A program made the translations under genes and the position numbers. 64,000 nt of DNA from assembly GCA_964563935.1 (NCBI GenBank), contig CAZLZE010000002.1, positions 6,205 through 70,204 on the forward strand, written 5' to 3'. This document shows, one piece after another, positions 2,516 to 25,714 of this stretch. Under the pieces are notes generated by a model. That model did not search any database. It saw only the letters and a program-made list of their open reading frames with translations, and had not been told where the DNA came from. Each line of letters opens with the position of its first letter. Position 1 is the stretch's first letter. The stretch is from an uncultured Phycisphaerae bacterium. GTDB lineage: Bacteria; Planctomycetota; Phycisphaerae; JAAYCJ01.

Positions 2516-3520
2516 ATGAACGACAAAACGACACAATGGACGATGGTCGCCTCGATGCTGGGCCTCAACCGCCTGCCGCAGGCGTGGAAATGGCCCGGAA
2601 GGTCGATTCGTATCCCTCGGATCGCCGGGTACGATGTCGTCCGGGTACTTCTGGGCCTCGTGCTGCTGACGGCGGCGGGACTTAAGGGCTATCAACTGGC
2701 CACCGAGCCGACGCTGGACAAAACTCTCTTCACCTCCCGGTGGCTCCTGATTGCCCAGGTGGAGTTTGAGCTTTTCATGGGCATCTTCCTCCTAAGCGGG
2801 TTATATAAGCGCCTGGTCTGGCTGGTGATGCTTGTCTGTTTTGTCGCCTTTTCGTGCGTGACGCTGTACAAGGGTCTTTCCGGCGAGGCGTCCTGCGGGT
2901 GTTTCGGGAAGATTGAAATCAATCCTTGGTATACGTTTGTGTTCGATACCTGTGCCATCATGGTATTATTGACGTTTCGCCCCGAAAGGACCAATTCTCG
3001 TCCCATGCAACCCAGCTGGGGAAGACCCGTGATGTTAGTGGTGCTAGTCCTCGCCGCCACCATCTCCGGCGGCTGGACCATGGCCAGGTATCAGCCTGCC
3101 GTTCTCGACTCCGACGGCGATCTGATCGGAGACAGTGATTTCATCGTCCTCGAACCGGAAGCGTGGATCGGAAAACCTCTCCCGCTTCTGAGGTATATCG
3201 ACATCGGTCACAGATTGGCAAAAGGGAAATGGGTGGTGATCCTGTATCATCATGATTGCGCTGACTGCAAGGAGGCCATTCCCAAATACGAGCAGATGGC
3301 CCTCGAAGTTGCTGACAAACCGGAAGCACCTCGATTCGCCTTCATTGAAGTGCCACCGTGTGTAGTGGATCGCTTCGATCCAAGAATCGCGGTTTGTGAC
3401 TACGGAGTTCTGACGGATAGGAAACAGTGGTTCGTTGAGACGCCGACAGTCATTTCATTGGAAGATGGCAAAGTGATACAGACGTCACGCGGTCTCTTCC
3501 AGAGCGGTGAAAGGGGGTGA
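2516..3520 (+). CDS. MauE/DoxX-family membrane protein fused to thioredoxin-like domain
   Basis: Several TM helices with SCGCFG motif; C-terminal LYHHDCADC (CxxC) in a Trx-like beta-alpha context. ATG 2516 follows GGAG. Confidence 0.8.
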   Translation: MNDKTTQWTMVASMLGLNRLPQAWKWPGRSIRIPRIAGYDVVRVLLGLVLLTAAGLKGYQLATEPTLDKTLFTSRWLLIAQVEFELFMGIFLLSGLYKRLVWLVMLVCFVAFSCVTLYKGLSGEASCGCFGKIEINPWYTFVFDTCAIMVLLTFRPERTNSRPMQPSWGRPVMLVVLVLAATISGGWTMARYQPAVLDSDGDLIGDSDFIVLEPEAWIGKPLPLLRYIDIGHRLAKGKWVVILYHHDCADCKEAIPKYEQMALEVADKPEAPRFAFIEVPPCVVDRFDPRIAVCDYGVLTDRKQWFVETPTVISLEDGKVIQTSRGLFQSGERG

Positions 3521-3611
3521 TGCCTATGAGCGTCTTATGAAGTCGTTAGTGTGGAATCTGGTCAGATTTGCGCTATGAAGGACAATTCTGTCAATGAAAG
3601 GAAAAACTCAA

Positions 3612-4031
3612 ATGAAATGGAAGATTCTAGTTGTTTTGGGGCTCATTCTGCTGGCGTGTGCCAGCCAAACCGTCACAGCCATGACACCCTTGTCGGAAGA
3701 TCAAATGGAGTCTGTAGTTGGCGCTTCAGGCTTCATGCAGTCATGTACTGGTACTTCGAACTGTCCGGGAAGGTGCGTGGCGCCAACCAAATGCACGCAG
3801 GTAATTACTCCGTTGACACACTATTGCCGCAGGGACAATGGTACGGCCGGATGCAGCAGTTCCGGGACATTCAAGGATTGTGAATGGGCGTGGTGTCTAT
3901 GGTGCTCGAATGGCGGGCCCGGACGATGTGGAAACTACGAGCTTCCGTACTGTGAATCGTCGTATGGATACTGCACAGGTATGGCTGGCTGCTCAAATAC
4001 GGGCGCTGCTTGTAAAAATGATTGCACATAG
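3612..4031 (+). CDS. Secreted Cys-rich precursor with signal peptide and double-glycine-type leader
   Basis: RBS GAAAGGA. MKWKILVVLGLILLACASQTVTA, then MTPLSEDQMESVVGA, then a 101-aa core with 15 Cys. Confidence 0.85.
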   Translation: MKWKILVVLGLILLACASQTVTAMTPLSEDQMESVVGASGFMQSCTGTSNCPGRCVAPTKCTQVITPLTHYCRRDNGTAGCSSSGTFKDCEWAWCLWCSNGGPGRCGNYELPYCESSYGYCTGMAGCSNTGAACKNDCT

Positions 4032-4045
4032 TTAACCATAACGAC

Positions 4046-4084
4046 ACAATGTTATTCAGGCTGATTTAGCCTGAATAACATTGT
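4046..4084 (+). terminator. Perfect 17-bp stem-loop (terminator or mRNA-stabilising hairpin)
   Basis: ACAATGTTATTCAGGCT-GATTT-AGCCTGAATAACATTGT, followed only by a weak T-rich tail. Confidence 0.7.
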
Positions 4085-4110
4085 ACTATTTATTGGAAGG
4101 ATTTCACATT

Positions 4111-5520
4111 ATGTTAAAGCACATTGGAAATGGACTGTTTATAATCGGGCTTCTTGTTTTGCCTCAAATCTGTGCAGCTGTTCACGCTGAAGGGATTCAA
4201 GTGGAGGATGTACTGGACGGCATGGAGGCACGGCGGTCTCAGATTGCTGATATGGAGCATCAGTATACCATCAGCCAGAACAACACAGACGACTTCTATA
4301 AGTTTTCCAGGCAGAGGGTTGAGGAATATAGACAACAATCCCCGGACTTGGCCGAGAAGGCGGGAGGACTGATCGTTCCTGAGGGTCTGAGTGCATCTCG
4401 AGAGTCATCCTCAAGCTATCATCTCTTTGTGAAAGGAAACAAGCGAGCTTTCGAAGACTACAGCGTTAACACTAAGGACAAATCACGAACCCTTATGCAG
4501 CAAGGGGCATACGATGGCGAGACCCTCAAACTCCTAGAACCGCAACGGTTAAGCGGCCTCTTGAAACGAGAGTCGCCTCAGAATATTCTCCGGTTCCCGA
4601 CGTTCCCCAAGATGTTGGGATTGGAAGGCCGAGAGTTATCTGAATACCTCAAAAGTGACGGGGTGGAGTGTCAGGTCACGGGAACCAAGATTGTTGATGG
4701 GGACACGAACGTGGAATTGCTCATCCGCCGCCGACACACACCCGTGCCCGAACAGCCCATCGAGACAGTTATTGAACATCGCGTGACGATCAATGCACAG
4801 AAGAACTTCTGGCCGACGAAAATCGAGCGATATGATGAGATCCGAAACGTGTCGACCGGTGAATCCGCCCGTTCCCTGAAAAAACGGATTGAGGTTGGGG
4901 AGTTTGCGGAAAGCAATGGCGTCTTTTTCCCAAAACAGATTCAGGAGAGCAACTACGAATGTGAATACAGCTATTCCCAGGGAGGGCTCATTCCCAAGCT
5001 GTCCGAACCCAAACTGACGGCGTCAGTCCGGACCGTTACCGAAAAGCTCGCCATCAATACAGGATTGTCCGATGATGCCTTCAAGCTGGAGTTCCCGAAA
5101 GGTACTCGCTATTACGACGCAAACTTGGGCATGGCCGTCGTCGTCGGCGCCGATCCTCTGCAAATGGCCGAGGAAATGGCTCGCAACGCCGATGCCCTCC
5201 CGGTCAAACTGTTCACCGAAGAGCAGGCCAAAGCCATTCTCGAACTCCGGCGACAAGGGAAGGTTAAAGAGGCTGAAGCCCTCAGGCGGCAGATTCTGGA
5301 CGCAAAACGCCCACCAGCAGCGACTACCAAACCGTCCGAACTCGCGAGCACCCCGACCTCAACGCCTGCTGGAGCCAAGGTCCCCGTAACCACTGTCGTA
5401 CAAGCAGGCGGGACCTCCTGGCTTGTCTACGCGGTCGTCATCTTGTTCTGTTTTGTTCTCGGCGCCGCTTTGGTTCTTGTCCGCCGATGGAGGAATGAAC
5501 ATGTCAATGAGCATCGATAG
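4111..5520 (+). CDS. Secreted hypothetical protein with C-terminal membrane anchor
   Basis: Signal peptide MLKHIG..AVHA; beta-rich body ending FKLEFPKGTRYYD; Pro/Thr-rich linker; TM helix and RRWR tail. Confidence 0.8.
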   Translation: MLKHIGNGLFIIGLLVLPQICAAVHAEGIQVEDVLDGMEARRSQIADMEHQYTISQNNTDDFYKFSRQRVEEYRQQSPDLAEKAGGLIVPEGLSASRESSSSYHLFVKGNKRAFEDYSVNTKDKSRTLMQQGAYDGETLKLLEPQRLSGLLKRESPQNILRFPTFPKMLGLEGRELSEYLKSDGVECQVTGTKIVDGDTNVELLIRRRHTPVPEQPIETVIEHRVTINAQKNFWPTKIERYDEIRNVSTGESARSLKKRIEVGEFAESNGVFFPKQIQESNYECEYSYSQGGLIPKLSEPKLTASVRTVTEKLAINTGLSDDAFKLEFPKGTRYYDANLGMAVVVGADPLQMAEEMARNADALPVKLFTEEQAKAILELRRQGKVKEAEALRRQILDAKRPPAATTKPSELASTPTSTPAGAKVPVTTVVQAGGTSWLVYAVVILFCFVLGAALVLVRRWRNEHVNEHR

Positions 5521-7300
5521 AATCAGATCCGTTCCGTTCGTGCCCGATTTGTGTTTCTCCGGGCACGTGTCGAGAGCAAAACGCCGTGTGTACGATCTCA
5601 TCAATGCGATCAACAGGTACGCACATGTGAGGCGCAATCGGCACCGTGCTGTGATGCTGATTCTGGGTACGTGCCTTTGTGTTTCGTCTGTTCTTGCCGA
5701 TCAGGGCGACATCCGGCCGATCCGTAACTGCGGCGCGCAGTGTGCCCTTATGCTGTGTCGATACTTTCAGGTCAATGTTCAGGAGGAACAGTTACAGAAG
5801 TACCTTGGTCCGCAAGATAAGGGGACTGTGTCCCTGCACGAATTGAAAGAATGCTTCCAAGCCCTTGGGTTTGACTCCCTTGCCTTTCAAGGGGACTCGG
5901 AGGACTTGAAGAAGAGCGTACATCCGATTATCCTGCATTTCCGGCCGGTACGAAATGAAAAAGTGGGGCATTTCCTCGTGGTCATGATGGACTTCAAACG
6001 CGGCCAGCTCGTGGCGTACGACCCCTCGTTTGCCGGGCGGCCTATTGATCTGGATGATAAGACCCTCCAAAGGTACTGGACGGGAAAGGGACTGATGGTT
6101 TGGCCTCGCTATGCCAACCATTTGCCACAAGAACGTTTCCCGGGATCGCTGTGGCTTTCGGCTCTTGCTTCTGTGTTCTGTGGAGCAGTCTTCACCCATC
6201 TACTCACCTTCCGTTCTCAGAAAGGAATCTTCTTCGTCCCATTACTGGTTTGGGCGGCGGGACTCTGTTACGCTGAAGCCAAGCCGTCTGCTCTTCCTAC
6301 CGTCAAGCCTGAAAAGGAAGTCAACTTGGGGATGCTTCCTGAAGGACGCAATGAAGTGCAGTACGACTTCTCCTGGCGGAACCCCTATTCCGAGACGTTG
6401 ACGATTCAGCGAATCTCCAAAAGCTGTGGATGTGAAGTCGTGCGCCCGAGCGCAATGCAGATACCACCCCAAGGAGATCTCAAACTGCATCTCTACGTCG
6501 ATGCGGCCAAATGGAATGGACAGGCAGCAGTATCCTTTGTCGTCTTCTTCACCAAGTCCTCCATTCAGCCCAGACTCTTCACCCTGAACTTCTTCCGACC
6601 GAAAAGTCTGCAGGCCGATCCGCCGACCGTGGATTTCCAGACCGTTGACGACCCATCGACCGCCATTCGATCATTCAGGTTCGCGTGGGTCTCCGATAAG
6701 ACACAGAAGAATGTGCACATTGAGGAAAGCAAAATCACCTGTAATCGCGACCTCCTGCGCTGCCGATTCCTGAAGACCACCACCAGGGAATTTCGTCTTC
6801 CCAATGCGGCCGCCGTGACCCGGGAACAGGCATTCTTTTACGAGGTTCGTACCGCGCCCGGAATCCGTGAAGGCGAGTTCCATGATACCATTAGTATTCC
6901 GGTTCAGATTGGAGACGACAGACGGGTGCTTCGCGTCCCCGTTGCTGGATATGTTCCGAAGCAGATAACCGCTCAACCATCCAAGATTATTGCGTTCCTG
7001 TCACCCGATAAGATTCAGACGGCGAAATGGCTGGTATCCCTGGTGGCGCGAAAGGACATGAAAGCTCCAGAGAATACAGTAGTCAGTGGCATTGAATACG
7101 ATCGGAGCAAGCTGTCGGTTGTCGCGTTGACTAGGCCCCAAATGAAAGATGGGAACATCATTCAGACACTGCAAATCTCTCTCAACAAGAATGCGGCCGG
7201 AGACTCCGTCAAAACAGCAATCCATCTCCTGTGTCAAGTTGGCAAGGAGAAGGTCAATCTGGACATTCCAGTGAAAGTTATCGTTGCCACGCGGAAGTGA
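5501..7300 (+). CDS. C39-family cysteine peptidase fused to TM segment and DUF1573-like Ig domain(s); start uncertain
   Basis: NCGAQCALML..YF, IILH..GHFLVV and VAYDPS give a Cys/His/Asp triad; later WRNPYSETLTIQRISKSCGCE (DUF1573-like); no ABC domain. Start could be 5495, 5501 or ~5651. Confidence 0.8.
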   Translation: MSMSIDRIRSVPFVPDLCFSGHVSRAKRRVYDLINAINRYAHVRRNRHRAVMLILGTCLCVSSVLADQGDIRPIRNCGAQCALMLCRYFQVNVQEEQLQKYLGPQDKGTVSLHELKECFQALGFDSLAFQGDSEDLKKSVHPIILHFRPVRNEKVGHFLVVMMDFKRGQLVAYDPSFAGRPIDLDDKTLQRYWTGKGLMVWPRYANHLPQERFPGSLWLSALASVFCGAVFTHLLTFRSQKGIFFVPLLVWAAGLCYAEAKPSALPTVKPEKEVNLGMLPEGRNEVQYDFSWRNPYSETLTIQRISKSCGCEVVRPSAMQIPPQGDLKLHLYVDAAKWNGQAAVSFVVFFTKSSIQPRLFTLNFFRPKSLQADPPTVDFQTVDDPSTAIRSFRFAWVSDKTQKNVHIEESKITCNRDLLRCRFLKTTTREFRLPNAAAVTREQAFFYEVRTAPGIREGEFHDTISIPVQIGDDRRVLRVPVAGYVPKQITAQPSKIIAFLSPDKIQTAKWLVSLVARKDMKAPENTVVSGIEYDRSKLSVVALTRPQMKDGNIIQTLQISLNKNAAGDSVKTAIHLLCQVGKEKVNLDIPVKVIVATRK

Positions 7301-7418: not shown

Positions 7419-9026
7419 TCACGCCTCGACGCGGGCTTCGGCGGATTCGACCAGGGTGCCGCCGGTTTCGGGCGATTGTGCCAAGGAGCTTAGGCGAAGA
7501 TACGACACACCGACGGTTTCGCGAAGCAAAGGCAGCGTACAAAACGCCTGGCCGCTGACCAGGACCTGGCATTGGCGCTTGGCGAGATCCCAATTGAGTT
7601 CCAGGTCGTGCCAGACGTTCGGCTTCACCATCGCCGGGGTTAGTTCCAGATTAAAAAGATTGTAAAAGCGGTCCTCCAGATCGAACGGAACGGAAAAATG
7701 GTCCGTAAGCCCGATGCGGACGCCCCCGGATCCTGCTTTCACCATCATCCGAAGACGAAGCTGGCCGCATCGTCCCGAAGGGAAGTTCCACACGGCGGCG
7801 GCAGGCCAATCGGCGTCGATTCGTCGCAATTCGAGAACCTTTGCATTCGCCTTCTCCGGATGCGGGGAGAATTCCACGCCCTTCGTTCCAAATTTGGCCC
7901 ATTCCTCTTCGCCCGCGTCAAAATCCGCCTTCTGTGAAGTCTCCAGCAGCCAGTTCGGATCCATCTGCATCAGGAGCACTCGCCCTTTGCCCTGGCCCGT
8001 GCAGTAGAGCACCTTGCCGTCGTTCGCCGTCGTCGGAAAAGGATACCCCGTCCCGAAGTCGCCGTTGGGCGGAGGCGGTTCGAGACGCCGCGGATCGCGG
8101 GCCACTTCACGATAGCCGCGCCACGTCTGGCCTTCGTCATCCGAAATGGCGGCGTGAATGACGTGCCGACCACCGAAGGCATAAGGGAAGCGCAGGCAGT
8201 TGTTCCAGAAAAGCACGATGCGGCCATCGTCCAGCCGCGTCAATCCCGCCGGTGAATCGGACGACAGGATCGACGTCGGACGCGGTGACGACCAGATCGC
8301 GCCGTCATCGGAAAACGACTCATAGAACCGCCCCTGCTGCGTGCGGATCAGCATCCACACCCGCCTGTCCTTAAGCTGCAGGACCATCGGCTCGACCGCA
8401 CCGTACGCGGAGACGATATCCGGCACGGGCACGCGAATATTCGACCCCTGTGCCCAGGTCGCCCCGCCGTCGTCGGAATAGATCACCGTGCAATCATACT
8501 GACCCATGAACGTGTAGGTGTCGAGCCCTTCGCCGCGTTTGTCCCACGCACGCGTGGTCAGCCACGAAAACGGCAGCAGGATTCGTCCATTGGTCATCTG
8601 GATCACCGAATTCAGCGCGCCGGTATACCCCTTCCAGATCAGCCGGGGACTCGACCATGTCGTCCGCGCCCCGCTCGATCGAGCATACCAGATGTCGAGC
8701 CGAACATTCGTCAGTTCGCCGATCAGCACCCGCTCGCCTTCGCCCTCGCCCGTCACCGCCCCCGCCGGATCGTTCATAATGAAAAGATGCACCTCGCCAT
8801 CACGCGTCAGAAGAGGCATGACCCAGATCCAGCTTCCCGGCCCTTTTGACCGCTCCAGCAGGCGCTCGGGTTCGCCCCAGGACGCGCCGTTGTCTTTCGA
8901 CAAACGGCTAACGACTTCCTGCGTCTGGTCGCTCGCCTGAACAAAAACGCTCATGAGCGTTCCGTCGGCGAGCCGTAGAACGATCAGGGGGTTATCCATG
9001 ACGAATAGGGCAATCGGTTTGGCCAT
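7419..9026 (-). CDS. Sialidase-family / BNR-repeat protein
   Basis: Asp-boxes SKDNGASW, SDDGGATW, SDDGAIW, SDDEGQTW. Confidence 0.85.
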   Translation of the reverse strand: MAKPIALFVMDNPLIVLRLADGTLMSVFVQASDQTQEVVSRLSKDNGASWGEPERLLERSKGPGSWIWVMPLLTRDGEVHLFIMNDPAGAVTGEGEGERVLIGELTNVRLDIWYARSSGARTTWSSPRLIWKGYTGALNSVIQMTNGRILLPFSWLTTRAWDKRGEGLDTYTFMGQYDCTVIYSDDGGATWAQGSNIRVPVPDIVSAYGAVEPMVLQLKDRRVWMLIRTQQGRFYESFSDDGAIWSSPRPTSILSSDSPAGLTRLDDGRIVLFWNNCLRFPYAFGGRHVIHAAISDDEGQTWRGYREVARDPRRLEPPPPNGDFGTGYPFPTTANDGKVLYCTGQGKGRVLLMQMDPNWLLETSQKADFDAGEEEWAKFGTKGVEFSPHPEKANAKVLELRRIDADWPAAAVWNFPSGRCGQLRLRMMVKAGSGGVRIGLTDHFSVPFDLEDRFYNLFNLELTPAMVKPNVWHDLELNWDLAKRQCQVLVSGQAFCTLPLLRETVGVSYLRLSSLAQSPETGGTLVESAEARVEA

Positions 9027-9041
9027 GAAAAACTGTCCTTT

Positions 9042-10148
9042 CTACACCGTAAACTTGAACCAGCGAATGTTCGACACGCAATCCTCGTAGCCCCAGAACG
9101 CGACGAAGATCGAGCCGTCCTTCGTACGCGTAATGCACGGGGCTCCGAATCGCAGCACGGCGAAGTTCTTTGACATATTGTCCGACGTCGCCGTCAATCC
9201 CTGCACCTGGTGGCCCCAGAGCGGCTCGGCCGCCTCATTGACCCAGCGATCGCCGTCAAGGTGCGAAAAGTTCGCCCACAATCCGGGCGTATCCATCCGC
9301 CGATACACACACAAAAACCGCCCGTCGTCGAGGACAAACGGCGTCAGCGTCTGGCCCAAAAGCCCCGTCGACGCCGGCTGAGACCACGTCTTTCCGCCGT
9401 CCTTGCTGAGCACGTACTGATTGGGCCGATCCTTCTTCGCCTTTTCATCATACGCCCAGGCCACCGCCATCAGCCGCCCGTCAGGAAGCTCGAGGATCTT
9501 CGACTCCCAATAAAATACACTGAAGTCCGATTCCTTCATCACATCCCAATACTCAGGCCATGTCTTGCCGCGATCGTGCGAGACCAGCGCCACCATCTTC
9601 TTGCCGTTCGGGCAGCTTCCGTCCCACCCCGGCCAGGTGGATGTCGGTATGATCCAGCGCCCGTCACGAAGCGGCGTGATCGGGCAGCACTGCTCAAACG
9701 ACGGCCCCACCAACGGCGGCTTGATCGGCGACGGCTCGGACCAGGTCCGTCCAAAATCCTTCGATCGGAGAAGTAACAGTTCCGTCGGAACGAACCCCTG
9801 CGTCTCAGGGCTGGTCAGCCCTTCCTCCGGATGATCCGTCCGATCGCTCCGCACCATAAACACCGCCGCCTCACCGTCCGCAAACGCAGTGATCCGGCAA
9901 TAATCCGACGTCACTCGGTCCTTCGTCCCGGGATAGATCCTGCCTTGCAGGGTCCACGTCTCTCCGTTATCGGTCGATCTTGCGATGTAGGTGTGGGAAT
10001 CGGCCGACTCGAACGCCTGGCCCAACGCCAGCGTCGCCACCATCTCGCCGTTACTCATCACAGCCACCGATGGAAAATACGCATGCTCGCTGCGAACGTG
10101 CGGTTTGGGGTTTCGGTAAATCAGTCCGCTCCTGAGATTCTTTAGCAT
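9042..10148 (-). CDS. Sialidase-family / BNR-repeat protein
   Basis: Asp-boxes STDNGETW, SKDFGRTW, SHDRGKTW, SKDGGKTW. Confidence 0.85.
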   Translation of the reverse strand: MLKNLRSGLIYRNPKPHVRSEHAYFPSVAVMSNGEMVATLALGQAFESADSHTYIARSTDNGETWTLQGRIYPGTKDRVTSDYCRITAFADGEAAVFMVRSDRTDHPEEGLTSPETQGFVPTELLLLRSKDFGRTWSEPSPIKPPLVGPSFEQCCPITPLRDGRWIIPTSTWPGWDGSCPNGKKMVALVSHDRGKTWPEYWDVMKESDFSVFYWESKILELPDGRLMAVAWAYDEKAKKDRPNQYVLSKDGGKTWSQPASTGLLGQTLTPFVLDDGRFLCVYRRMDTPGLWANFSHLDGDRWVNEAAEPLWGHQVQGLTATSDNMSKNFAVLRFGAPCITRTKDGSIFVAFWGYEDCVSNIRWFKFTV

Positions 10149-17001: not shown

Positions 17002-17103
17002 ACCCTCTGGTTTGTATTTGGAATATCCACAAACTTCGATCTGCCACTTTAACCCCAACCAAGCCAGGACGCCTTTACCTTACGGATGAGGTGTACATTC
17101 TCC

Positions 17104-18825
17104 ATGACAAGCGTACGAAATATGCCCTCAGTATATCGGATTGAACCTGGATTGGCGAATCTGACCCAGGAACAGCTTCAGGCGGCACGTTCCGAGGCCA
17201 AGAAGCAGCAGATTTCGCTTCGCGACAGCATTCTGAAGCTCGGGTTTGCGGACGAGACTCAGCTGCTGCAGTCCGCGTCGCAGTCTACCGGCCTGGAACT
17301 CGTGCATCTGTCCGCGGATGATATTTCCCGGGATGCTCTGGCGATCGTCAACGCCCAAACGGCCTCCCACTACCACATCATCCCCGTTAAGGTTGCCGAC
17401 GATACCCTCTGGGTGGCCACCAGCGATCCGTTCAACTCAGACTTGAAACACGAGATCGAACTGGTGCTGGACTGTCCCTATCGCGTGGAATTCGTCCTGG
17501 CGACGGCGGACTCCATCAAGCAGGCGATCCGGAAATGCTATGGCGTGGGCGCCGCCACCGTGGAGCAGATGGTGGCGGAGGAAGGGATCCGGGAGGCCGA
17601 TGGTCCCGCGGACGGCGACATTTCCGACGAGAGCAAGGCCATCGAGGCCTCGGTCATCAAGCTGGTGAACCAGATCCTGGCGGACGCCATTTCCGCCGGC
17701 GCAACGGACATCCATTTCGAACCCCACGAAAATGACTTGCGGGTCCGATACCGAATCGACGGACGGCTTCACGATTCCGGCATGCCCTCCTCTGTACGCC
17801 ACTTCCGCGAAGGCATCACAAGCCGAATCAAGATTCTCTCGGGACTCGACATTGCCGAGAAACGTCTGCCTCAGGACGGTCGGGCGCAGGTTAACCTGTC
17901 GGGAAATCTGTTTGATTTGCGGGTCTCGATTCTCCCCACACCGTTCGGAGAGGCCGCGGATATACGCGTCCTGCCCCGCGGGGCGATTATCCTGGACCTG
18001 CCCACCCTGGGAATGCCGGAACGAGACGTAACGGAACTGACCAGGCTGATCCACAAGCCCCACGGCATTCTTTTGGTCACGGGACCGACCGGAAGCGGCA
18101 AGACAACCACGCTGTATACCTGCATGAAGATGCTCAACCGCATCGATCAGAAGATCATCACCATTGAGGATCCAATTGAGTACAATCTGGGCGGCCTGGT
18201 CCAGATGCAGGTTCATTCGGAAATCGGATTCACTTTCGCCCGGGCGTTGAGAGCGATCTTGCGTCATGACCCGGACATCATTCTCGTGGGTGAAATACGC
18301 GACCTGGAGACGGCAGAGACGGCCATTCGAACCGCCCTCACCGGCCACCTGGTGTTCAGTACGCTGCACACCAACAGCGCCGCCAGCGCCGTTACACGGT
18401 TGCTGGATATGGGCATCGAGTCTTACCTGCTGGCGTCATCCATCGAAGGAATTCTCGCCCAGCGACTCGTGCGAAAGCTGTGCACACACTGCAAAGAACC
18501 TTACACGCCGCCCGAGGAAGTCCAGACGATGGTCAAATCCTTTCTCGGTCTGGATCGGCTTCCGGAAGCGTACCAGGGTCGTGGATGCGCCAAATGTCGT
18601 TTCACCGGCTATCAGGGACGCACCGTCATCAGCGAACTCATGATCATGTCGGAGGAGATTCGCAACCTGGCCATCGCCAAACGTCACGCCAATGAGATCG
18701 ACGCACTCGCCCGCAAAGAAGGGATGGTTTCGCTACTGACATGCGGCTTGGACAAGGTTCATCAGGGAATCACAACATATGCAGAGGTGCTGCGAGTCAC
18801 CAAGGGTACCGTGTCGGCCGACTGA
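17104..18825 (+). CDS. gspE: Type II secretion ATPase
   Basis: DIHFEP, DIAEKRLPQDGR, Walker A GPTGSGKTTT, RHDPDIILVGEIRD, Zn-finger CxxC pairs. RBS GAGGTG. Confidence 0.93.
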   Translation: MTSVRNMPSVYRIEPGLANLTQEQLQAARSEAKKQQISLRDSILKLGFADETQLLQSASQSTGLELVHLSADDISRDALAIVNAQTASHYHIIPVKVADDTLWVATSDPFNSDLKHEIELVLDCPYRVEFVLATADSIKQAIRKCYGVGAATVEQMVAEEGIREADGPADGDISDESKAIEASVIKLVNQILADAISAGATDIHFEPHENDLRVRYRIDGRLHDSGMPSSVRHFREGITSRIKILSGLDIAEKRLPQDGRAQVNLSGNLFDLRVSILPTPFGEAADIRVLPRGAIILDLPTLGMPERDVTELTRLIHKPHGILLVTGPTGSGKTTTLYTCMKMLNRIDQKIITIEDPIEYNLGGLVQMQVHSEIGFTFARALRAILRHDPDIILVGEIRDLETAETAIRTALTGHLVFSTLHTNSAASAVTRLLDMGIESYLLASSIEGILAQRLVRKLCTHCKEPYTPPEEVQTMVKSFLGLDRLPEAYQGRGCAKCRFTGYQGRTVISELMIMSEEIRNLAIAKRHANEIDALARKEGMVSLLTCGLDKVHQGITTYAEVLRVTKGTVSAD

Positions 18826-18836
18826 GATAGAGGACT

Positions 18837-20054
18837 ATGCAATCATTCGCATACAAAGCCAAGGGAATGGATGGACGCCTGATTACCGGAGAAATTCAAG
18901 CGGAAGATCGTCCGTCCGTCGTCTCCATGCTGAAAAAGAAAGGGTATTTCGTCCTGTCGGTCGAACCGGAACAGCGGTTGGTTGTTTCGATTCAGCGAAA
19001 ATTCCGCTTCCTGGAGCATCGAGTCCCGCTTCGACAGAAGGCCGTCTTCACCCAGCAACTGGCCACCCTGCTGAAGGCGGGGATGCAGTTGACCGTTGCC
19101 CTGAAGACCCTGTCCCGGCAGATGGAGGACAAATTCTTCGCGTCGATCATTCACCGACTGTATCAGGACATCGAAGAATCGAGTTCCCTCTCCCAAACCA
19201 TGTCCAATTTTCCGAACGTGTTTCCTCCGACCTACACCGCCATCGTCGGCGCGGCTGAGGAGTCCGGGTCGCTGGTCGAATCGCTCACCAATCTGAGCAA
19301 GCAAATCAAGTCCCAAGCCGCCATTTGCTCCCGCATCAGAGGCGCCTTGGCCTACCCGCTCTTCCTGCTGCTCGTAAGCATACTCGTCGTGGGCGTCCTG
19401 GTAAGCTTCGTCATACCCAAATTCATTGAACTCTTTGTCAATGCCAACCAGAAGCTGCCCCTGCCGACTCTGATCCTCCTGCATATTACCGACTTTTTCA
19501 AAGCGTTCTGGTGGGTATTTCCACCTGCGATCATCGGCGCGATCTTCCTGGCCGCCGTCGTCCTGAAAAACGAGAAGATCAAGAGCATCTCGGACACCTG
19601 CCTCCTGCGATTCCCCCTGCTCGGCCGGCTGAACCTGAAAATCCAACTGGCCCAGTTCACAAGGACCCTCGGTTCGCTCCTGGACGGCGGGGTCCGAATC
19701 CTGCCCGCGGTGCAGATTGCCCGGGGCACCACCCGCAATCTGGTATTCGCCCAGAACATTCGGGATATTTCCAGCCAGATCACCAAAGGGGCGACCCTCG
19801 CCCAGGCAATCAAGAAACAGCCCTTCTTCACCGAGCTTACCGCCAGCATGATCGCCGTCGGAGAGGACAGCGGCATGCTTCCGGAAATGCTCCTGGAAGT
19901 GGCAGAGATCTACGAGCAGGAGGCGGAAGCCACCATCAATTCCCTCACCGGACTTCTGGGCCCGATGATAGTCGTCTTCATCGGCCTTGTTATCGGATTT
20001 GTCGTCATGGCCATTCTCTTGCCCATCTTCGAGGCAAGCACCATGGTCGGATGA
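18837..20054 (+). CDS. gspF: Type II secretion inner-membrane platform protein
   Basis: FTQQLATLLKAG, ALAYP, MIAVGEDSGMLPEML, MAILLPIF. Confidence 0.93.
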   Translation: MQSFAYKAKGMDGRLITGEIQAEDRPSVVSMLKKKGYFVLSVEPEQRLVVSIQRKFRFLEHRVPLRQKAVFTQQLATLLKAGMQLTVALKTLSRQMEDKFFASIIHRLYQDIEESSSLSQTMSNFPNVFPPTYTAIVGAAEESGSLVESLTNLSKQIKSQAAICSRIRGALAYPLFLLLVSILVVGVLVSFVIPKFIELFVNANQKLPLPTLILLHITDFFKAFWWVFPPAIIGAIFLAAVVLKNEKIKSISDTCLLRFPLLGRLNLKIQLAQFTRTLGSLLDGGVRILPAVQIARGTTRNLVFAQNIRDISSQITKGATLAQAIKKQPFFTELTASMIAVGEDSGMLPEMLLEVAEIYEQEAEATINSLTGLLGPMIVVFIGLVIGFVVMAILLPIFEASTMVG

Positions 20055-20068
20055 AAGGAGTATCGACG

Positions 20069-20533
20069 ATGAGAGAATATCGCATAACCACGTCCCTTCG
20101 TGCCGCGTTCACGCTCGTTGAACTGCTCTTGGTGATCACCATCATCGGCGTTCTGGCTGCCGTGATCGTCCCGCGTTTCTTCGGACGGTCGCAGGACGCC
20201 AAGATCGCCGCCGCCAGGCAGACCATCGTGGGAACATTCGGGACCGCCCTGGACTTGTATGAACAGGATGTCGGCGAATATCCGACAACCGATCAGGGAC
20301 TCGAGGCCCTGATCAAGGATCCTTCCACCAAGGACTGGCGGGGCCCATACCTCAAGAGTACAACCATTCCCATGGATCCCTGGGGCAACCCGTATAAATA
20401 CACGTACCCAAGCGAACTGACGGATTCTGAGACGCTCTATGACCTTGTCTCCCCCGGTCCCGACGGAACAGCGGGAAACGCGGACGACATCACCAATCAC
20501 AATGCCCAGGAACACACGGAAAACAAGAAATAG
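20069..20533 (+). CDS. gspG: Major pseudopilin
   Basis: A|FTLVELL prepilin motif; ALDLYEQDVGEYPTTDQGLEALI, GPYLK, DPWGNPYKY. RBS AAGGAG. The track's 19511 start is spurious. Confidence 0.93.
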   Translation: MREYRITTSLRAAFTLVELLLVITIIGVLAAVIVPRFFGRSQDAKIAAARQTIVGTFGTALDLYEQDVGEYPTTDQGLEALIKDPSTKDWRGPYLKSTTIPMDPWGNPYKYTYPSELTDSETLYDLVSPGPDGTAGNADDITNHNAQEHTENKK

Positions 20534-21032
20534 ATCCGCCTTCACCCTGACGGAAATGCTGATCGTCCTGGTCATCATCTCCGTGACTCTAGCAGTCATT
20601 GTTCCCTATTCGGGGCGCACCACAGGTCATATGAAACTGACTCAGGAAAGCCTCAACCTGCAGGCAGCCATTCTCTTCGCCCGGGATCGCGCCGGAATGA
20701 CAAACAGGTCCGTACGGCTGGTCATTGATCGCAAAAAGAATCAATACAGACTGGAAGAGATCTCGAAAGCGGACGCCAACGAGTTCAAGCCGCTGGAAGG
20801 TTCCCTCGGAATGAACCGGACACTGGACAAGTCCGTCGCCATCCTGGAGACCGACCAATTGACAGATGAAAACGATCGGCAAACTCTGACCTTTGACCCC
20901 AACGAGGTCTGGCCGACCGCCAGCATCACCCTTGGCGATAAGCAAGCCTCGGCAACCGTCGTACTCAACGGAATATCAGTGGAAATCAATGAAACCACGA
21001 TCGAAGACACGAAAGACAAAACACCCGGTTAA
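20502..21032 (+). CDS. gspH: Minor pseudopilin (GspH/FimT-like)
   Basis: A|FTLTEMLIVL; position after gspG. Confidence 0.75.
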   Translation: MPRNTRKTRNRSAFTLTEMLIVLVIISVTLAVIVPYSGRTTGHMKLTQESLNLQAAILFARDRAGMTNRSVRLVIDRKKNQYRLEEISKADANEFKPLEGSLGMNRTLDKSVAILETDQLTDENDRQTLTFDPNEVWPTASITLGDKQASATVVLNGISVEINETTIEDTKDKTPG

Positions 21033-21408
21033 CACCCGGCACGCCACAACCGCTTTTACGTTGATTGAAGTAATCGTGGCCTTGGCCATCCTGGGCACGG
21101 GAATCACGGCGGTCTTTGGTGTCCTGAGCGTCTGCTCACGGGCCGCTCATCATAATCGCATGCTGACGCAGGCAGTGCTCCTGGCGGAATCGGAACTGGC
21201 ACGCGCCAGCCTGGTCAAGCGAACCGAATTCGGAACACAGGACGGAACCAGCGGACCATTCAAATGGCAGGTGGATATCGCGTCAACGCCTGTTGAGGAC
21301 TTGGCCGCCATCAAGGTTACCGTCACATGGAGCGAACAAAAGCGGCCGCAGTCCTATGAACTGCTGTCCTGCATACGGATGAAATCTTTCGTCGAAAAGG
21401 AAACCTGA
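20989..21408 (+). CDS. gspI: Minor pseudopilin (GspI-like)
   Basis: A|FTLIEVIVALAI; GPFKWQVDI. Confidence 0.75.
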   Translation: MKPRSKTRKTKHPVNTRHATTAFTLIEVIVALAILGTGITAVFGVLSVCSRAAHHNRMLTQAVLLAESELARASLVKRTEFGTQDGTSGPFKWQVDIASTPVEDLAAIKVTVTWSEQKRPQSYELLSCIRMKSFVEKET

Positions 21409-21518
21409 TGTTACTGGAAACGCCGATGCTGGCGGCGGCAATATGGATAATGGTAATCGGCAATCGCCTGCCATCGGCGGCATTCGCTCGTAGCATATGT
21501 CAGCCGACGTACAACTAG
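21408..21518 (+). CDS. Possible 36-aa small ORF
   Basis: TGATG overlap with the gspI stop, preceded by AAAGGA; MLLETPMLAAAIWIMVIGNRLPSAAFARSICQPTYN. Confidence 0.25.
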   Translation: MLLETPMLAAAIWIMVIGNRLPSAAFARSICQPTYN

Positions 21519-21543
21519 AATATTTGGAACAACTCTTCTTCAT

Positions 21544-22167
21544 ATGACATCACCGAAACAAAGAGGGTTTACGCTCGTGGAAATACTGATCGCAATGGTG
21601 ATCGCAACGATTCTTGCGTTGGCGCTCCAGACAATCCTTCGACAGGGATTTCATATCCTGTCGCATGCCGAGAAACGCCGACCGACCTTTCAGAGCGTCA
21701 GGTTCATCACGGAGATGATGCGTGAGGAAATCACCGGGGTTTACCTTCCGCCCCTGGGCCCGGACAAGGATGCCTCGTTTCTCCTGGATGAAACGAAACT
21801 TGAGTTCTATACGTCAACGCCCTTCCTGGAAGCCAATCCATCCCTGTCCAGAATGGCCAGAGTGCGATATGAATTCACCCGGGACGACGCCTCCCAATTG
21901 TTCACTCTGAAACGAACTCAGCAATTGTACTCTGGCGAGAAGAATATCGCCCAGGAAACGGTGGCAACTCTGGCTTCGGGACTCTCCACAGTCTCCCTCA
22001 AAGCTTTTGATCGAGCAAACGAGCAATGGAAGGATAGCTTCAAATCCAAGGAAGAGCCTCCTCGAGCCATTCTGTTTTCCATTGCCTGGCCGGGAAACAA
22101 GTCGGTTCCGGCACTGGACTTCCAGACCGTGTACCGAATTCCGAGTCAGATCGCAGTGAGGAATTGA
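21544..22167 (+). CDS. gspJ: Minor pseudopilin (GspJ-like)
   Basis: G|FTLVEILIAM; ends WKDSF..PPRAILFSIAW. Confidence 0.8.
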   Translation: MTSPKQRGFTLVEILIAMVIATILALALQTILRQGFHILSHAEKRRPTFQSVRFITEMMREEITGVYLPPLGPDKDASFLLDETKLEFYTSTPFLEANPSLSRMARVRYEFTRDDASQLFTLKRTQQLYSGEKNIAQETVATLASGLSTVSLKAFDRANEQWKDSFKSKEEPPRAILFSIAWPGNKSVPALDFQTVYRIPSQIAVRN

Positions 22168-22179
22168 GCGGGCGGAATC

Positions 22180-23211
22180 ATGTTAAATTCCAACACAATC
22201 GAACATAAAAGAACAAGGAAAGGCAGTATCCTGATCTTCGTTCTGATCGTTGTCGCCACGACGACGGTTTTGGCCTTCGGATTTGCCTATCGGACTCGCA
22301 TCGAGATCAAGCTCGTCGACAATTACGCCAAGCGGACTTACGCCCACTACCTGGCCCTGGGCGGTCTGGAGCGACTCTTGTGCCTTCTCGAAAAGGACCC
22401 CGGGGACTTGACCGTCGCGGCGCACACGGGCAGGCTTGGCGCGTTCAGCACCACCGCGACGAAAGAGGAACTGTTCAAGGATGTGCCGGGGAGGACCGAC
22501 AGAGCCCATGATCTGCAATACTCCATTTGCGACGAAGCAGGTCTGCTCAACATAAACACGTCGGATCCGGCCTGCTGGGCACAACTTGATCCGCTCACAA
22601 AGGAATCGGCCGCATGTATTCTCGATTGGGTTGATGAGGACGACGACGCAGGTCTGGGCGGTGCGGAAACCGCCTACTACGAGAAGCTGAGCCCCTCGTA
22701 TCGGGCCAAGAACGCCAAGTTCATTCTTCCGAAGGAATTGCTGTACATCAAGGACATCTCTGCACAAATGTACACTCATCGTTCCGGCCTGGACCACGAG
22801 GCGTTCTCGACGGTCGCCCGAAATACTCCTGTTCCGGGCCTCCTCGATATCTTCACCACACGAGGAAACGGGCAAATCAACCTCAACACGGCCCCCAAAT
22901 ACATTATCGCATCACTTCCCGGCCTGAACGAATTCGTGGCTGATGCTCTTTACACCTTCCGAGCCGGTTTTGACGGTCAACTGGGAACGGATGACGACGT
23001 CTTCCTTGAGTCCGGGGATGATATTCTGAAAGTTCCCGGCGTCACGGAACTGCAGGCGGAATTACTGGGGCAATACTGCTGCTTTTCGTCTGCCGAGTTT
23101 CGCCTATATTCCCGTGCCGCAATGAAAGGCGGCGTGGAATGTCGTCTGATGGGGTCCGTCAAGTATCAGCAAGGCAAGGCCCAGTTGGTCTCAGTTGAGA
23201 GAATTCCGTAG
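22180..23211 (+). CDS. gspK: Minor pseudopilin (GspK-like)
   Basis: RKGSILIFVL; DEAGLLNINT; ILDWVDEDD; GQINLNTAP..SLPGL. Confidence 0.88.
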   Translation: MLNSNTIEHKRTRKGSILIFVLIVVATTTVLAFGFAYRTRIEIKLVDNYAKRTYAHYLALGGLERLLCLLEKDPGDLTVAAHTGRLGAFSTTATKEELFKDVPGRTDRAHDLQYSICDEAGLLNINTSDPACWAQLDPLTKESAACILDWVDEDDDAGLGGAETAYYEKLSPSYRAKNAKFILPKELLYIKDISAQMYTHRSGLDHEAFSTVARNTPVPGLLDIFTTRGNGQINLNTAPKYIIASLPGLNEFVADALYTFRAGFDGQLGTDDDVFLESGDDILKVPGVTELQAELLGQYCCFSSAEFRLYSRAAMKGGVECRLMGSVKYQQGKAQLVSVERIP

Positions 23212-23212
23212 C

Positions 23213-24637
23213 ATGCATGAAACGACATTGAAATCCGAATGGGGCGCCCTCGCCGCCCATCCCGACGGGGGGATGGTCGTGGGCATTCGTCCAGGGGGCC
23301 AACAGATCGTCCTTTACTATTTCGGGTCCATGCATGACCTTTATCATGCCCTGGAGCGAAGAGAACTGGTGGTCCGCAAGTGGGCTGTGAGCGTTCCGGG
23401 CAACCAATGCATTCATAAGTCGCTCGGTCTACCCACGTCCGACCCGGCTGAGGCCACGAAGATACTGGAATTCGAGCTGCCGTCGCTCGTACCCATCCCA
23501 CCGGATCAATTGGTGTTCGGCTGCACTCCGACCCTGACGCACGACAACCTGACGGAGTATCTACTGCATATCGTCCGCCTCGACAGACTCGACTCGCTGC
23601 TCAAGCCCTTCCTTGATCGGAATCTGGAGGTCCACACGGTCCTTACGCATCCACTTGCCGTGATCGCCTGGACTCTTCCACAAGTCGCGATACCTCCGAG
23701 CACACCGATCACGCTTGTGCTCAGGTCCCCAGCCCACATTGAGGCCATCACGTGCATCAATGGGAACATCCAGACGATTCGCCGCAAGCCCATCGACACG
23801 AACGATGCCCGGCATACAGTGTGGGCGATCAGGGAATTCCTCAGCCAGCATCAGGGTTCCGGTGGGATCGATGTCGGCGAGGGCCAATTCGTTCTCGTCG
23901 GTTTTGAGGCCCACTCTCAGTCCATTACCAAACAGATACAGGAGGCAAGCGACGGACGTTCGCATTTGGATCCCCTCTTCCTGGCTCATCCTCCGGTGTT
24001 GCCGTGGGAAGGGTCCTCACCACCGTCCGACGGCAAGGGACATTTGGAGCACGCAGCCGTCATTTGCGCCGGATTGCTCTCGGCCGTAACCGACTCACAG
24101 TTCGGCTGCTTCAACCTGCTGCCTGCGACTCATCAGAAGCGGCTGGCGAAGAAGGATCGAATCCGAAAATACGTCTGCACGGGTGGCCTGGTCGCCATGG
24201 GTGTTCTGCTTCTCTGGTTTTCCCTGTTCACGATGAATCTCCGCATCGACCGGGTCTGCCGAAAGATGGAAGATCAGATGGCGCCGATCACCGGCGTGGC
24301 CCGATCCGTCGAAACCAAACGGCGTCACATTTCCGCCATTGAAAACCAGTTGTCCAATCGTGGGCTGATCCTGCGGATCATTCAGGAATTGTACCGCTTT
24401 ACACCTCAGACGATTTCGCTGAGCGAGCTATCGTACACGTCCCAGACCGACCGAACATCCATCAGCATGAAAGGGCAGGCAGATATACTCTCCAATGCTT
24501 TTGGATATACCGAGGCCCTCCGCAAAGCTTCCGTGCTGAACGCCGTACAGATTGAGGATGCTCAACAGATTCCTCGGCCCGGTGGAAGCGTGGTTGAGTT
24601 TCGCGCAAACGGTATTATCAAGGCGGACCGCAAATGA
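23213..24637 (+). CDS. GspL / PilM-PilN-like assembly protein
   Basis: LEFELPSLVPIP (actin-like region), FNLLP, single TM helix and PilN-like C-terminus; operon position. Confidence 0.7.
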   Translation: MHETTLKSEWGALAAHPDGGMVVGIRPGGQQIVLYYFGSMHDLYHALERRELVVRKWAVSVPGNQCIHKSLGLPTSDPAEATKILEFELPSLVPIPPDQLVFGCTPTLTHDNLTEYLLHIVRLDRLDSLLKPFLDRNLEVHTVLTHPLAVIAWTLPQVAIPPSTPITLVLRSPAHIEAITCINGNIQTIRRKPIDTNDARHTVWAIREFLSQHQGSGGIDVGEGQFVLVGFEAHSQSITKQIQEASDGRSHLDPLFLAHPPVLPWEGSSPPSDGKGHLEHAAVICAGLLSAVTDSQFGCFNLLPATHQKRLAKKDRIRKYVCTGGLVAMGVLLLWFSLFTMNLRIDRVCRKMEDQMAPITGVARSVETKRRHISAIENQLSNRGLILRIIQELYRFTPQTISLSELSYTSQTDRTSISMKGQADILSNAFGYTEALRKASVLNAVQIEDAQQIPRPGGSVVEFRANGIIKADRK

Positions 24638-25200
24638 CAAAACCCCAAACCATGAACAGAGAAAGACCGCTGGGCCGGATAGCCCTGATCCTTCTCGCCT
24701 CCGCAATTATTTACCTGATCCTTCTGGGTCCTCAGATCGACAGACTTGGGCAACTGCGGAAGCGCGAGAAGGAACTGGAGATCAGTTTTGCAAAGATGAA
24801 ACGCGATCTGCTGGCGAAGGACCGTGTCGATCGGACGTACAGATCGATCGAGCCGATGATCAAGAGCACGGGCCACCATCAGCAGGAAATCTCGCTGTTT
24901 ACGCGTGAACTGAACGATCTGTACTCCCCGCTCGGCGTGCGAGTCCGTTCAGTCAAAATCCTGCCCGCCAATCAGAATGAGTTCTATCGCCAGTTTTCCG
25001 TCAAACTCGACATGTCGGGAGAGATCAAGGACATCCTCCGTTTTCTCGAAGCCGTTGAAACCTGCGCCAAGCCCATCAAGATCGAGAAGCTCACATTGAC
25101 GGCCAAGGATGTTCCTGATCAGCTTTCGGCAAGCTTTCTGATCAGCAAGATCGTAAGCACACCCGCCGGTTCGTCAAAACGGGAGGCCAGACGACTATGA
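24634..25200 (+). CDS. GspM / PilO-like protein
   Basis: N-terminal TM helix, coiled coil, ferredoxin-like FSVKLDMSGEIKDILRFL..IKIEKLTL. Confidence 0.75.
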   Translation: MTKPQTMNRERPLGRIALILLASAIIYLILLGPQIDRLGQLRKREKELEISFAKMKRDLLAKDRVDRTYRSIEPMIKSTGHHQQEISLFTRELNDLYSPLGVRVRSVKILPANQNEFYRQFSVKLDMSGEIKDILRFLEAVETCAKPIKIEKLTLTAKDVPDQLSASFLISKIVSTPAGSSKREARRL

Positions 25201-25694
25201 TTAAGACCCTCACATCCATCGACATTGTCGGCAGCGCCAGATCGACCCATCCAGTCCTCCGGTATGGGTTCATCGCGATCCTGGCCATTTCTCTTCTGCA
25301 ATTGCTCATTCCGGTACGTCTTCTGGGCGGAAGCACACCCTCGCCATCATCCGGCGACGCACCCGGACGGGACACGCCACCCGGGTTGCGCAAAGCCGTT
25401 GCTCATACTCCGATCAGCTCGATTATCACGCGTAAAGGACTCTTCAGACCCGCGACGCCCGTCGCGGACAAGCCGATGGCCGACAAAACCATCGAACGCA
25501 TAAAGTCTCAGCTTAAACTGCAGTGTGTCATGAACATGAACAACGAGCCCGTCGCCTATATCAATATCACCGGCGTCGGTCTGAGAAAGTGCAAGGTGGG
25601 CGAGTCGATTCAGGACCTCTTCACCGTCACGGTCATTAACACCAACAGCGTAGACGTCACCATTCTTGGTCACAAAGTGACCCTTGGTCTCTGA
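25197..25694 (+). CDS. GspC / PilP-like protein
   Basis: TM helix, low-complexity linker, KLQCVM..PVAYINI..KVGESI beta domain; directly before the secretin. Confidence 0.6.
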   Translation: MIKTLTSIDIVGSARSTHPVLRYGFIAILAISLLQLLIPVRLLGGSTPSPSSGDAPGRDTPPGLRKAVAHTPISSIITRKGLFRPATPVADKPMADKTIERIKSQLKLQCVMNMNNEPVAYINITGVGLRKCKVGESIQDLFTVTVINTNSVDVTILGHKVTLGL

Positions 25695-25714
25695 TAATTG
25701 TCTTTATACGGGAG

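Follow-up and report, generated by a model that had tools for sequence, protein, structure and literature searches.

A conserved five-gene cassette with a double-glycine-type propeptide behind a Sec signal and a predicted periplasmic C39 peptidase in an uncultured Phycisphaerae bacterium

The window analyzed here, a 64,000-nucleotide stretch of contig CAZLZE010000002.1 from an uncultured Phycisphaerae bacterium, carries a gene for a small, cysteine-rich pre-pro-protein (the precursor). The gene is one of five in a conserved cassette, which encodes a fusion of MauE to a thioredoxin-like domain (MauE-Trx), the precursor, a protein of ~460 amino acids (aa), a C39 peptidase, and a DUF1573 protein. 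The window genes follow this order, with the last two fused (Table 1). In outline, the precursor consists of a signal peptide, then LSEDQMESVVGA, and then a 101-aa core; more finely, its open reading frame (ORF) divides into MKWKILVVLGLILLACASQTVTA, MTPLSEDQMESVVGA, and the core, which begins SGFMQSC and ends KNDCT. The segment that precedes the core is a predicted propeptide of the double-glycine (GG) type. Double-glycine leaders classically act in the cytoplasm, where the peptidase domain of an ATP-binding cassette (ABC) exporter recognizes them as the peptide is exported. In this precursor, the leader follows a predicted signal for Sec export.

Table 1. Positions of the cassette features and of a neighboring secretion cluster, in window coordinates.
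Feature	Position	Strand	Basis or remarks
MauE-Trx fusion	2516..3520	+	Pfam MauE, 6.6e-10, 39.8 bits versus a cut-off of 27
Pre-pro-protein gene	3612..4031	+	139 aa; family of 25 representatives; AlphaFold2 (AF2) model with a mean predicted local distance difference test (pLDDT) score of 82
Sec-type signal peptide, residues 1-23	3612..3680	+	n-region K2/K4, h-region I5-L14; rule-based call
Double-glycine-type propeptide, MTPLSEDQMESVVGA	3681..3725	+	Position-wise conservation; hydrophobic residues at -15, -12, -7, and -4
Mature core, 101 aa, 15 Cys, predicted beta-rich	3726..4028	+	Cys and Trp columns, AF2 model
18-bp perfect stem-loop	4046..4084	+	15 nt past the precursor stop; terminator-like site
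~460-aa protein	4111..5520	+	N-terminal signal, large predicted periplasmic part, C-terminal transmembrane helix with basic tail; overlaps the C39 gene by 20 nt
C39 peptidase-DUF1573 fusion, 599 aa	5501..7300	+	Pfam Peptidase_C39 4.8e-18, DUF1573 2.3e-8
C39 peptidase domain	5726..6109	+	Catalytic Cys (IRNCGAQC), His (VGHFLVV), and Asp (AYDP)
DUF1573 Ig-like domain with CxC (SCGCE)	6311..6562	+	Pfam
GspE-like ATPase	17086-18825		Type II secretion cluster
GspF	18837-20054		Type II secretion cluster
Pseudopilin with N-methylation motif	21544-22167		Type II secretion cluster
GspK-like protein	22180-23211		Type II secretion cluster
Secretin	25715-28057		Type II secretion cluster

Translation of the precursor gene bears out what the original prediction had described, namely the ORF itself, its signal, a core with 15 Cys, and a CEWAWCLWC segment, which spans residues 90-98. 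The precursor contains 16 Cys, 15 of them within the core that follows VVGA, and 4 Trp, 3 of them in the core. The calculated mass of the reduced core is 10,660.8 Da, which corresponds to a mature protein of ~10.7 kDa. An alternative start, the ATG at 3594, would add six residues and give the 145 aa of database protein P0001, which was the sole close database relative in a word-index search (99% identical). Residues 5-21 have a Kyte-Doolittle hydrophobicity of 2.43, and small residues create two candidate signal peptidase I sites, ACA↓S and VTA↓M. The gene is genuine, yet standard gene callers easily overlook it. On L015, a 64.9-kb contig from the Joint Genome Institute (JGI) with identical DNA, the precursor is uncalled in the stretch 8020-8611 (window 3520-4111), and a 46-aa ORF in another frame is called instead. 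The family is probably under-annotated in metagenomes.

Relatives of the precursor were sought by an exhaustive phmmer search of 1.84 billion representatives at an E-value cut-off of 0.001. The search yielded 25 representatives, with a best E value of 4e-20 and seven at E <= 1e-10. All but P0019 are 103-184 aa long; P0019, a 927-aa repeat protein, is a spurious compositional match and was rejected. Leader, Cys, and Trp counts given below refer to the 24 aligned members, and Cys totals refer to the 23 full-length members. All members are metagenomic, and the few with any name are called "hypothetical protein." No Pfam or NCBIfam model matches the family, scans of GTDB representative genomes gave no match, and a metagenome scan returned one distant locus (L008), which lacks the precursor. 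Word-index searches with the precursor and with the C39 protein recovered only the queries themselves, and a word-index profile search recovered five members. In one locus (L002, 1896-3070), two precursors, P0027 and P0023, stand in tandem; their signals have diverged, and their cores are near-identical by eye.

The GG-leader consensus comprises L(-12), S(-11), E(-8), L or M(-7), a hydrophobic residue at -4, G(-2), and G, A, or S at -1. Residues -12 to -1 of the window leader read L S E D Q M E S V V G A and satisfy this consensus, placing the predicted C39 cut after G37-A38. The pattern L[ST]..[EQD][LMI]..[VIL].G[GAS], run on all six frames of the window, matched twice, once in the precursor and once in a frame without any other sign of coding. 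Among the aligned members, G(-2) is present in 24/24 and A, G, or S(-1) in 22/24; one of L, I, V, M, F, or W occupies -12 in 20/24 and -15 in 19/24, S or T(-11) is found in 18/24, and E(-8) is found in 15/24. The alignment shows this block as G-[LW]-T-P-L-S-x-x-E-[AM]-x-x-[LVM]-[VI]-G-A, following a variable signal region. A signal precedes the leader in every aligned member; in the window, it is a hydrophobic segment of 23 residues. Mean pairwise identity across the family is 33.5% in the core (24% without Cys) and nearly as high in the leader (32%), but only 16% in the signal region. As judged from the alignment, the GG-type motif is more than chance and is as conserved as the core. The stacked signal and GG-type leader, which the original prediction had matched to the consensus position for position, is real and conserved family-wide. 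Homologs that retain the core and lose the leader would have refuted the original prediction; the family retains both. Hypervariable paralogs with a retained leader, which the original prediction had proposed to look for, are not found in the window, and the cores are conserved across the family. In the AF2 model, the leader forms a short helix (residues 29-33), and the linker behind it falls below a pLDDT of 50 at residues 36-38, where the cut is predicted. The model is consistent with a cut site that lies in an exposed linker.

The model, which was built with a 24-sequence alignment, reaches pLDDT values of 90-96 for residues 51-90 and 111-130 and drops to 63 in the Trp/Cys loop (residues 91-100), where the Trp cluster W92/W94/W97 is located. 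The modeled core fold has no match to any PDB chain or in BFVD. Twelve Cys columns are invariant or near-invariant. A further pair of Cys, one in CPGxxxC and the other near the C-terminus, covaries: both are present in 18 full-length members, neither is present in 5, and no member is discordant. This pair looks like a seventh disulfide, although the five members without it may form one clade and thus possibly reflect a single evolutionary event. An odd number of Cys occurs in 18/23 full-length members, and exactly 15 occur in 14/23. The window's odd residue is C95, in C95-L-W-C98. Across the family, the extra Cys has two alternative sites: 15 members have it in WAW-C-x-W-C, and 8 have it three residues ahead of the first invariant Cys. 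P0013 has it at both sites and one member at neither. Whichever site is used, an invariant Cys completes a CxxC (C102-xx-C105 or C192-xx-C195, alignment columns). This alternation suggests that the two sites are near each other in space. The odd count, being a family trait, favors the earlier proposal that one Cys is free or specially used. The CxxC beside the Trp-rich loop is probably a reactive or binding site of the mature protein.

The linkage of the precursor to its neighbors extends well beyond the window. Complete cassettes are found at L001, L013, and L018, with the MauE gene moved to the end in L018. Two loci, L004 and L019, contain the precursor, the 460-like gene, C39, and DUF1573; L007 contains MauE, the precursor, and the 460-aa gene; L002 contains MauE, DUF1573, the two precursors, and the 460-aa gene; and L009 and L011 contain the precursor and the 460-aa gene. 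A gene of the ~460-aa family is the next after the precursor in the window, L001, L002, L004, L007, L009, L011, L013, and L018 and, weakly, in L019. The C39 gene, which the original prediction had overlooked, lies downstream of the precursor in all six loci with enough DNA (window, L001, L004, L013, L018, and L019). The MauE-Trx gene is present in the window, L001, L002, L007, L013, and L018, with a fragment in L014. Because the flanking genes vary from locus to locus, the cassette is self-contained. In 5/6 loci, the 460-aa and C39 genes share 4-20 nt, an overlap that suggests translational coupling. A search for defense systems with PADLOC gave no match for any cassette protein.

A stem-loop follows the precursor gene and has a minimum free energy of -28 kcal/mol (z = -6.08); none of 200 shuffled sequences folds as well. 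Strong stems occur at the equivalent place in L004, L011, L013, and L018 and are not found in L002, L009, and L019. The element is likely a partial terminator or transcript stabilizer that raises precursor mRNA over that of the accessory genes, and its position agrees with higher transcription of the structural gene than of the genes for its processing.

Three loci show further features around the cassette. Directly upstream of the window cassette is a gene for an APH/homoserine-kinase-like phosphotransferase (921-1961), which is not conserved beside the cassette elsewhere and is therefore probably unrelated. Directly 5' of the precursor in L019, in the usual place of MauE, a gene (5061-5762) encodes a second Cys-rich, signal-bearing protein of 233 aa with about a dozen "GCCGGxVYDLxxQGCC"-like repeats, unrelated to the precursor. 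The distant, low-GC locus L008 (8001-10275) contains a gene for a ~440-aa protein followed by a C39-like/DUF1573-like fusion and has neither precursor nor MauE. Its C39-like part keeps Cys and His and has apparently lost the rest of the peptidase domain, and the genes adjoin an integrase and a tRNA-like fragment. L008 may be a decayed or mobile cassette remnant.

The C39 catalytic residues were placed by alignment to the ComA peptidase domain and PCAT1. Cys and His are invariant in the seven cassette C39s, and Asp is kept. In tblastn searches, the closest among the matches listed were the CvaB/MchF-type microcin exporter domains, to which the cassette C39 is ~30% identical; peptidase domains of this type are true GG/GA cutters. 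Neither Pfam nor NCBIfam detects an ABC domain in the C39 protein or elsewhere in the cassette. The window fusion is arranged as a basic N-terminus of 49 residues, a signal or transmembrane segment (50-66), the C39 domain, two transmembrane helices with a short basic loop between them, DUF1573, and a remaining C-terminal stretch. An identical protein is present on four contigs. The two domains are encoded by adjacent genes in L001, L004, L013, L018, and L019 and are fused in the window copy, a fusion that supports joint action on the same side of the membrane. Stand-alone C39s have an N-terminal signal-like segment, for example MRNGRGVLIVVCFFSCSLCIAASA in L013, and a C-terminal transmembrane helix followed by two to four K/R. 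By rule-based calls, the C39 N-termini of the window, L004, and L013 copies are signal-like. With its own signal and a C-terminal anchor, the peptidase should face the periplasm, where a Sec-exported substrate would arrive, and both the C39 and DUF1573 domains are predicted to do so. Because the C39, 460-aa, and DUF1573 proteins all have N-terminal signals, they are expected to share the compartment of the Sec substrate.

The CxC of DUF1573 is invariant in the seven cassette homologs. The DUF1573 family has selenoprotein members with UGC at the CxC motif (PMC9312934), which suggests redox activity. The ~460-aa protein has no match in Pfam, NCBIfam, PADLOC, or the PDB, including a profile search against the PDB, and a single-sequence AF2 run gave no usable model (pLDDT 41). 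A LolA-like identity was tried and rejected, given that hhalign aligned only 22 N-terminal residues with E. coli LolA at a probability of 0.2%.

The ORF of the MauE-Trx protein is open from the GTG at 2456. Between hydrophobic segments 3 and 4, the protein carries SCGCFG, and its C-terminal domain carries YHxDCxxC; both motifs are invariant in four homologs. The C-terminal domain matches Pfam Thioredoxin only weakly (E value 0.11). Of 19 weak matches of its profile to the PDB, 15 belong to the thioredoxin superfamily (best E value 0.0032), and the two printed alignments are centered on the CxxC. The MauE region has a sub-threshold match to the BT_3928 family of NCBIfam. From the hydrophobic segments and the K/R distribution, the CxC loop and the Trx domain would both lie in the periplasm. 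MauE replaces DsbB in E. coli in experiments, and its active site is a CXC in the periplasmic loop between transmembrane segments 3 and 4; 8.2% of MauE entries are thioredoxin fusions (bioRxiv 10.64898/2026.03.05.709764). We predict that the MauE-Trx protein is a DsbB-like membrane disulfide oxidase with a periplasmic Trx-like CxxC domain.

These features allow us to propose, with moderate confidence, that the pre-pro-protein is matured wholly on the periplasmic face of the inner membrane by its dedicated five-gene cassette. We infer the topology, the cleavage, the order of the steps, and every functional role in this scheme. The N-terminal signal would carry the unfolded chain through Sec and would then be cut by signal peptidase I or be kept for a while as an anchor. 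MauE-Trx would install approximately seven disulfides in the 101-aa core, possibly with the CxC-bearing DUF1573 protein as a second redox partner. The membrane-anchored C39 peptidase would read the 15-residue propeptide through L-12, S-11, E/Q-8, M-7, V-4, G-2, and A-1 in the periplasm and cut after Gly37-Ala38, freeing the mature protein. The product would have a beta-rich, disulfide-locked fold without known relative and one extra Cys in a CxxC by the Trp-rich loop. The ~460-aa protein, probably translationally coupled to C39, is likely a scaffold, a chaperone, or an immunity or hand-over factor. Several observations weigh against this proposal. The leaders of the tandem precursors P0023 and P0027 are degenerate, keeping only W-15, L-4, G-2, and A-1, and no curated hidden Markov model (HMM) for GG leaders, all of which are very short, matches the precursor. 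MauE is not adjacent in L011 and is absent from 15 kb of L019. The topology was assigned from hydrophobicity and the positive-inside rule rather than by a trained predictor.

The Gly-Ala pair might instead be no cleavage site at all. Signal peptidase alone would then mature the protein, the "leader" would be its structural N-terminus, and C39 would cut the ~460-aa protein, the DUF1573 protein, or some other substrate. The substrate of FapD, a periplasmic C39 enzyme, lacks a canonical GG leader (PMC5557850), which would favor this alternative, as would the missing HMM match and the two degenerate leaders. We nevertheless regard it as unlikely. The leader fits the canonical GG positions one for one, its glycine at -2 is invariant, and it is conserved like the core and unlike the signal region. 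AF2 places it outside the folded core, with the low-confidence linker between the two. A comparable motif was not seen in the other cassette proteins, among which no search aimed at one was made. The window copy might also be a lipoprotein, in which case signal peptidase II would cut it at LLA↓C, Cys16 would be lipidated, and C39 would later free the core from the membrane. The LLAC within the signal does match the lipobox pattern, as the original prediction had noted, and it lies at the right distance from the N-terminus. Yet only 2/24 members have a lipobox in the signal region, and several have no Cys there, so processing by signal peptidase II is no feature of the family, and we rejected lipoprotein status as a family trait. 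For the window copy by itself, it seems improbable.

The other alternatives concern what the core does. By analogy to C39-dependent fiber systems (the Fap amyloid and the FilB pilus), the protein could form part of the envelope as a structural or adhesive component, for instance a fiber subunit, that polymerizes or attaches through its unpaired Cys once the leader is removed. The odd Cys count, the hairpin after the structural gene, as is found with pilins, and the precedent of FapD are compatible with a fiber subunit. The C39 protein also weakly resembles the NCBIfam family "pilus system C39 peptidase FilB" (3.4e-5, far under the cut-off), and precursor residues 12-40, which span signal and leader, match Pfam DUF6160 weakly (E value 0.1). 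Together, the two similarities hint that proteobacterial Fil pilus loci may likewise combine signal plus leader with a periplasmic C39. Neither similarity is significant, however, and when the FilB lead was followed in a plasmid search, only ABC-fused C39s appeared among the 30 matches listed. The cassette contains no usher, secretin, or outer-membrane pore, and the rarity of the family and its differing neighborhood at each locus are unlike a core envelope structure. We accordingly give the fiber subunit little credence. The core could also be a small redox-active or metal-binding periplasmic protein in which a reactive thiol/disulfide, or a site for metal, is made up of the extra Cys and its CxxC partner. 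Consistent with such a role, the extra Cys always shares a CxxC with an invariant Cys, P0013 has both CxxC motifs, and three accessory proteins carry redox motifs, but searches turned up no known redox or metal protein similar to the core, and a propeptide and a protease would be left unexplained; we consider this role quite unlikely. The original prediction also raised a quinone-cofactor small subunit, which would resemble MauA with its tryptophan tryptophylquinone (TTQ) or QhpC with its cysteine tryptophylquinone (CTQ) and would build the cofactor from the Trp cluster and a Cys. The MauE neighbor and the conservation of Trp at three columns near the odd Cys (17/24, 12/24, and 15/24) point in this direction. 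Against it, none of the 24 members matches a Pfam amine-dehydrogenase small subunit, and the PDB offers no matching fold. No window ORF of at least 100 aa contains a CxxCH, the mark of a di-heme MauG candidate, in agreement with the earlier remark that no MauG-like oxidase is encoded, and the called genes of six cassettes include no large subunit, radical-SAM enzyme, or flavoprotein. In about one-third of the members, the odd Cys occupies the other site, far from the Trp cluster in sequence. MauE itself acts as a general disulfide oxidase and occurs mostly outside mau clusters (bioRxiv 10.64898/2026.03.05.709764), and the MauE neighbor is better explained as a general DsbB-like oxidase fused to a Trx-like domain than by a link to MauA. 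The quinone-cofactor idea is largely refuted and is now highly improbable.

A bolder extension of the proposed periplasmic maturation, and one that we put forward only as a long shot, is that the cassette represents a new maturation class, in which a bacteriocin-type GG propeptide has come to lie behind a Sec signal. A membrane-anchored periplasmic C39 complex, made up of C39, the ~460-aa protein, and the CxC-bearing DUF1573 protein, would quality-control oxidative folding and release a seven-disulfide protein of new fold, whose conserved unpaired Cys beside the Trp-rich loop would perform covalent chemistry. That chemistry could be thiol-disulfide attack on a target, self-polymerization, or formation of a Cys-Trp cofactor without a known cofactor enzyme.

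As to the function of the mature product, our guess is a secreted, bacteriocin-like competition protein that would be inactive while the propeptide is attached. We hold it weakly and tentatively, because of the GG-leader/C39 ancestry, the compact cassette, the varied neighborhoods, the tandem precursors of L002, and the strong hairpin. The cores, however, show conservation instead of hypervariability, a length of 101 aa is on the large side for a peptide with a GG leader, and no recognizable immunity gene or outer-membrane exporter is found within the cassette.

A type II secretion cluster (window 17086-28057) lies 10 kb from the cassette and is unlinked to it in other loci; it could provide an outer-membrane route for a folded periplasmic protein. 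Polysaccharide-degradation genes include two adjacent BNR/sialidase-like genes and a sulfatase gene (window 7419-10148 and 42609-43913, both on the minus strand), and on L015, genes for GH2 and GH106 glycosidases lie just upstream of the window region. Such gene content is typical of bacteria of the Planctomycetes-Verrucomicrobia-Chlamydiae (PVC) group. Together with a DUF1559-type gene in L001, it suggests that the cassette belongs to PVC bacteria.

Comparison with known systems shows which parts of the arrangement are familiar. With the GG-leader systems of peptidase-containing ABC transporters (PCATs), such as ComA, CvaB/MchF, LahT, and PCAT1, the cassette shares the leader consensus and a C39 domain with Cys, His, and Asp. 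In PCAT systems, the leader occupies the extreme N-terminus and the cargo is a short peptide, whereas the cassette leader sits behind a Sec signal and its cargo is a 101-aa protein that is predicted to fold. The cassette C39 is neither fused to an ABC transporter nor adjacent to one; a signal of its own precedes it, and its predicted location is the periplasm. Bacteroidota cassettes described in NCBIfam/TIGRFAM follow a similar logic, in that Cys-rich peptides with a GG leader are encoded together with a C39 and a thiol oxidoreductase of the membrane; their precursors are short and, to our knowledge, lack a Sec signal. No model for such Bacteroidota cassettes matched any cassette protein, the nearest related hit being the sub-threshold BT_3928 match of the MauE region.

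The closest parallel for the peptidase is FapD of the Pseudomonas Fap amyloid system, a periplasmic, stand-alone C39 with a Sec signal that is catalytically required. FapD acts in the periplasm on Sec-exported partners, its substrate is still not known, and GA is an accepted C39 cleavage site (PMC5557850). Like FapD, the cassette C39 has a signal-like N-terminus, by rule-based calls, and an intact catalytic Cys. In contrast to FapD, it is predicted to be membrane-anchored, is fused to DUF1573 in the window, and has a candidate substrate with a textbook leader. No Fap-like genes, outer-membrane pore, or amyloid repeats were found in six cassettes, and the literature searched contains no precedent for such a periplasmic C39 other than FapD. 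For the oxidase, the parallel is MauE/MauD, the pair for oxidative folding of the methylamine dehydrogenase small subunit. The cassette protein likewise has a MauE CXC between segments 3 and 4 and a putative Trx-like CxxC module, and it is encoded beside a small protein with many predicted disulfides. Here, the two modules are fused, no other mau genes are present, and the client resembles MauA in neither sequence nor fold.

Taken singly, GG leaders, C39 peptidases, a periplasmic C39 in one system, and MauE oxidases are already known. Their combination, in which a GG-type propeptide behind a Sec signal is joined by an anchored, predicted periplasmic C39, a dedicated oxidase, and two uncharacterized partners, is undescribed in the literature and the curated family libraries that we searched. 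If the proposed maturation is true, the precursor would be the first clear candidate substrate for periplasmic C39 enzymes. To the newly described MauE disulfide pathway, the cassette would add a natural client that is linked to it genetically, and DUF1573 and the annotation-less ~460-aa family would be placed in a functional context for the first time. With its many predicted disulfides and no match to a solved fold, the ~10.7-kDa product may be a candidate for a new stable scaffold or antimicrobial from uncultured bacteria.

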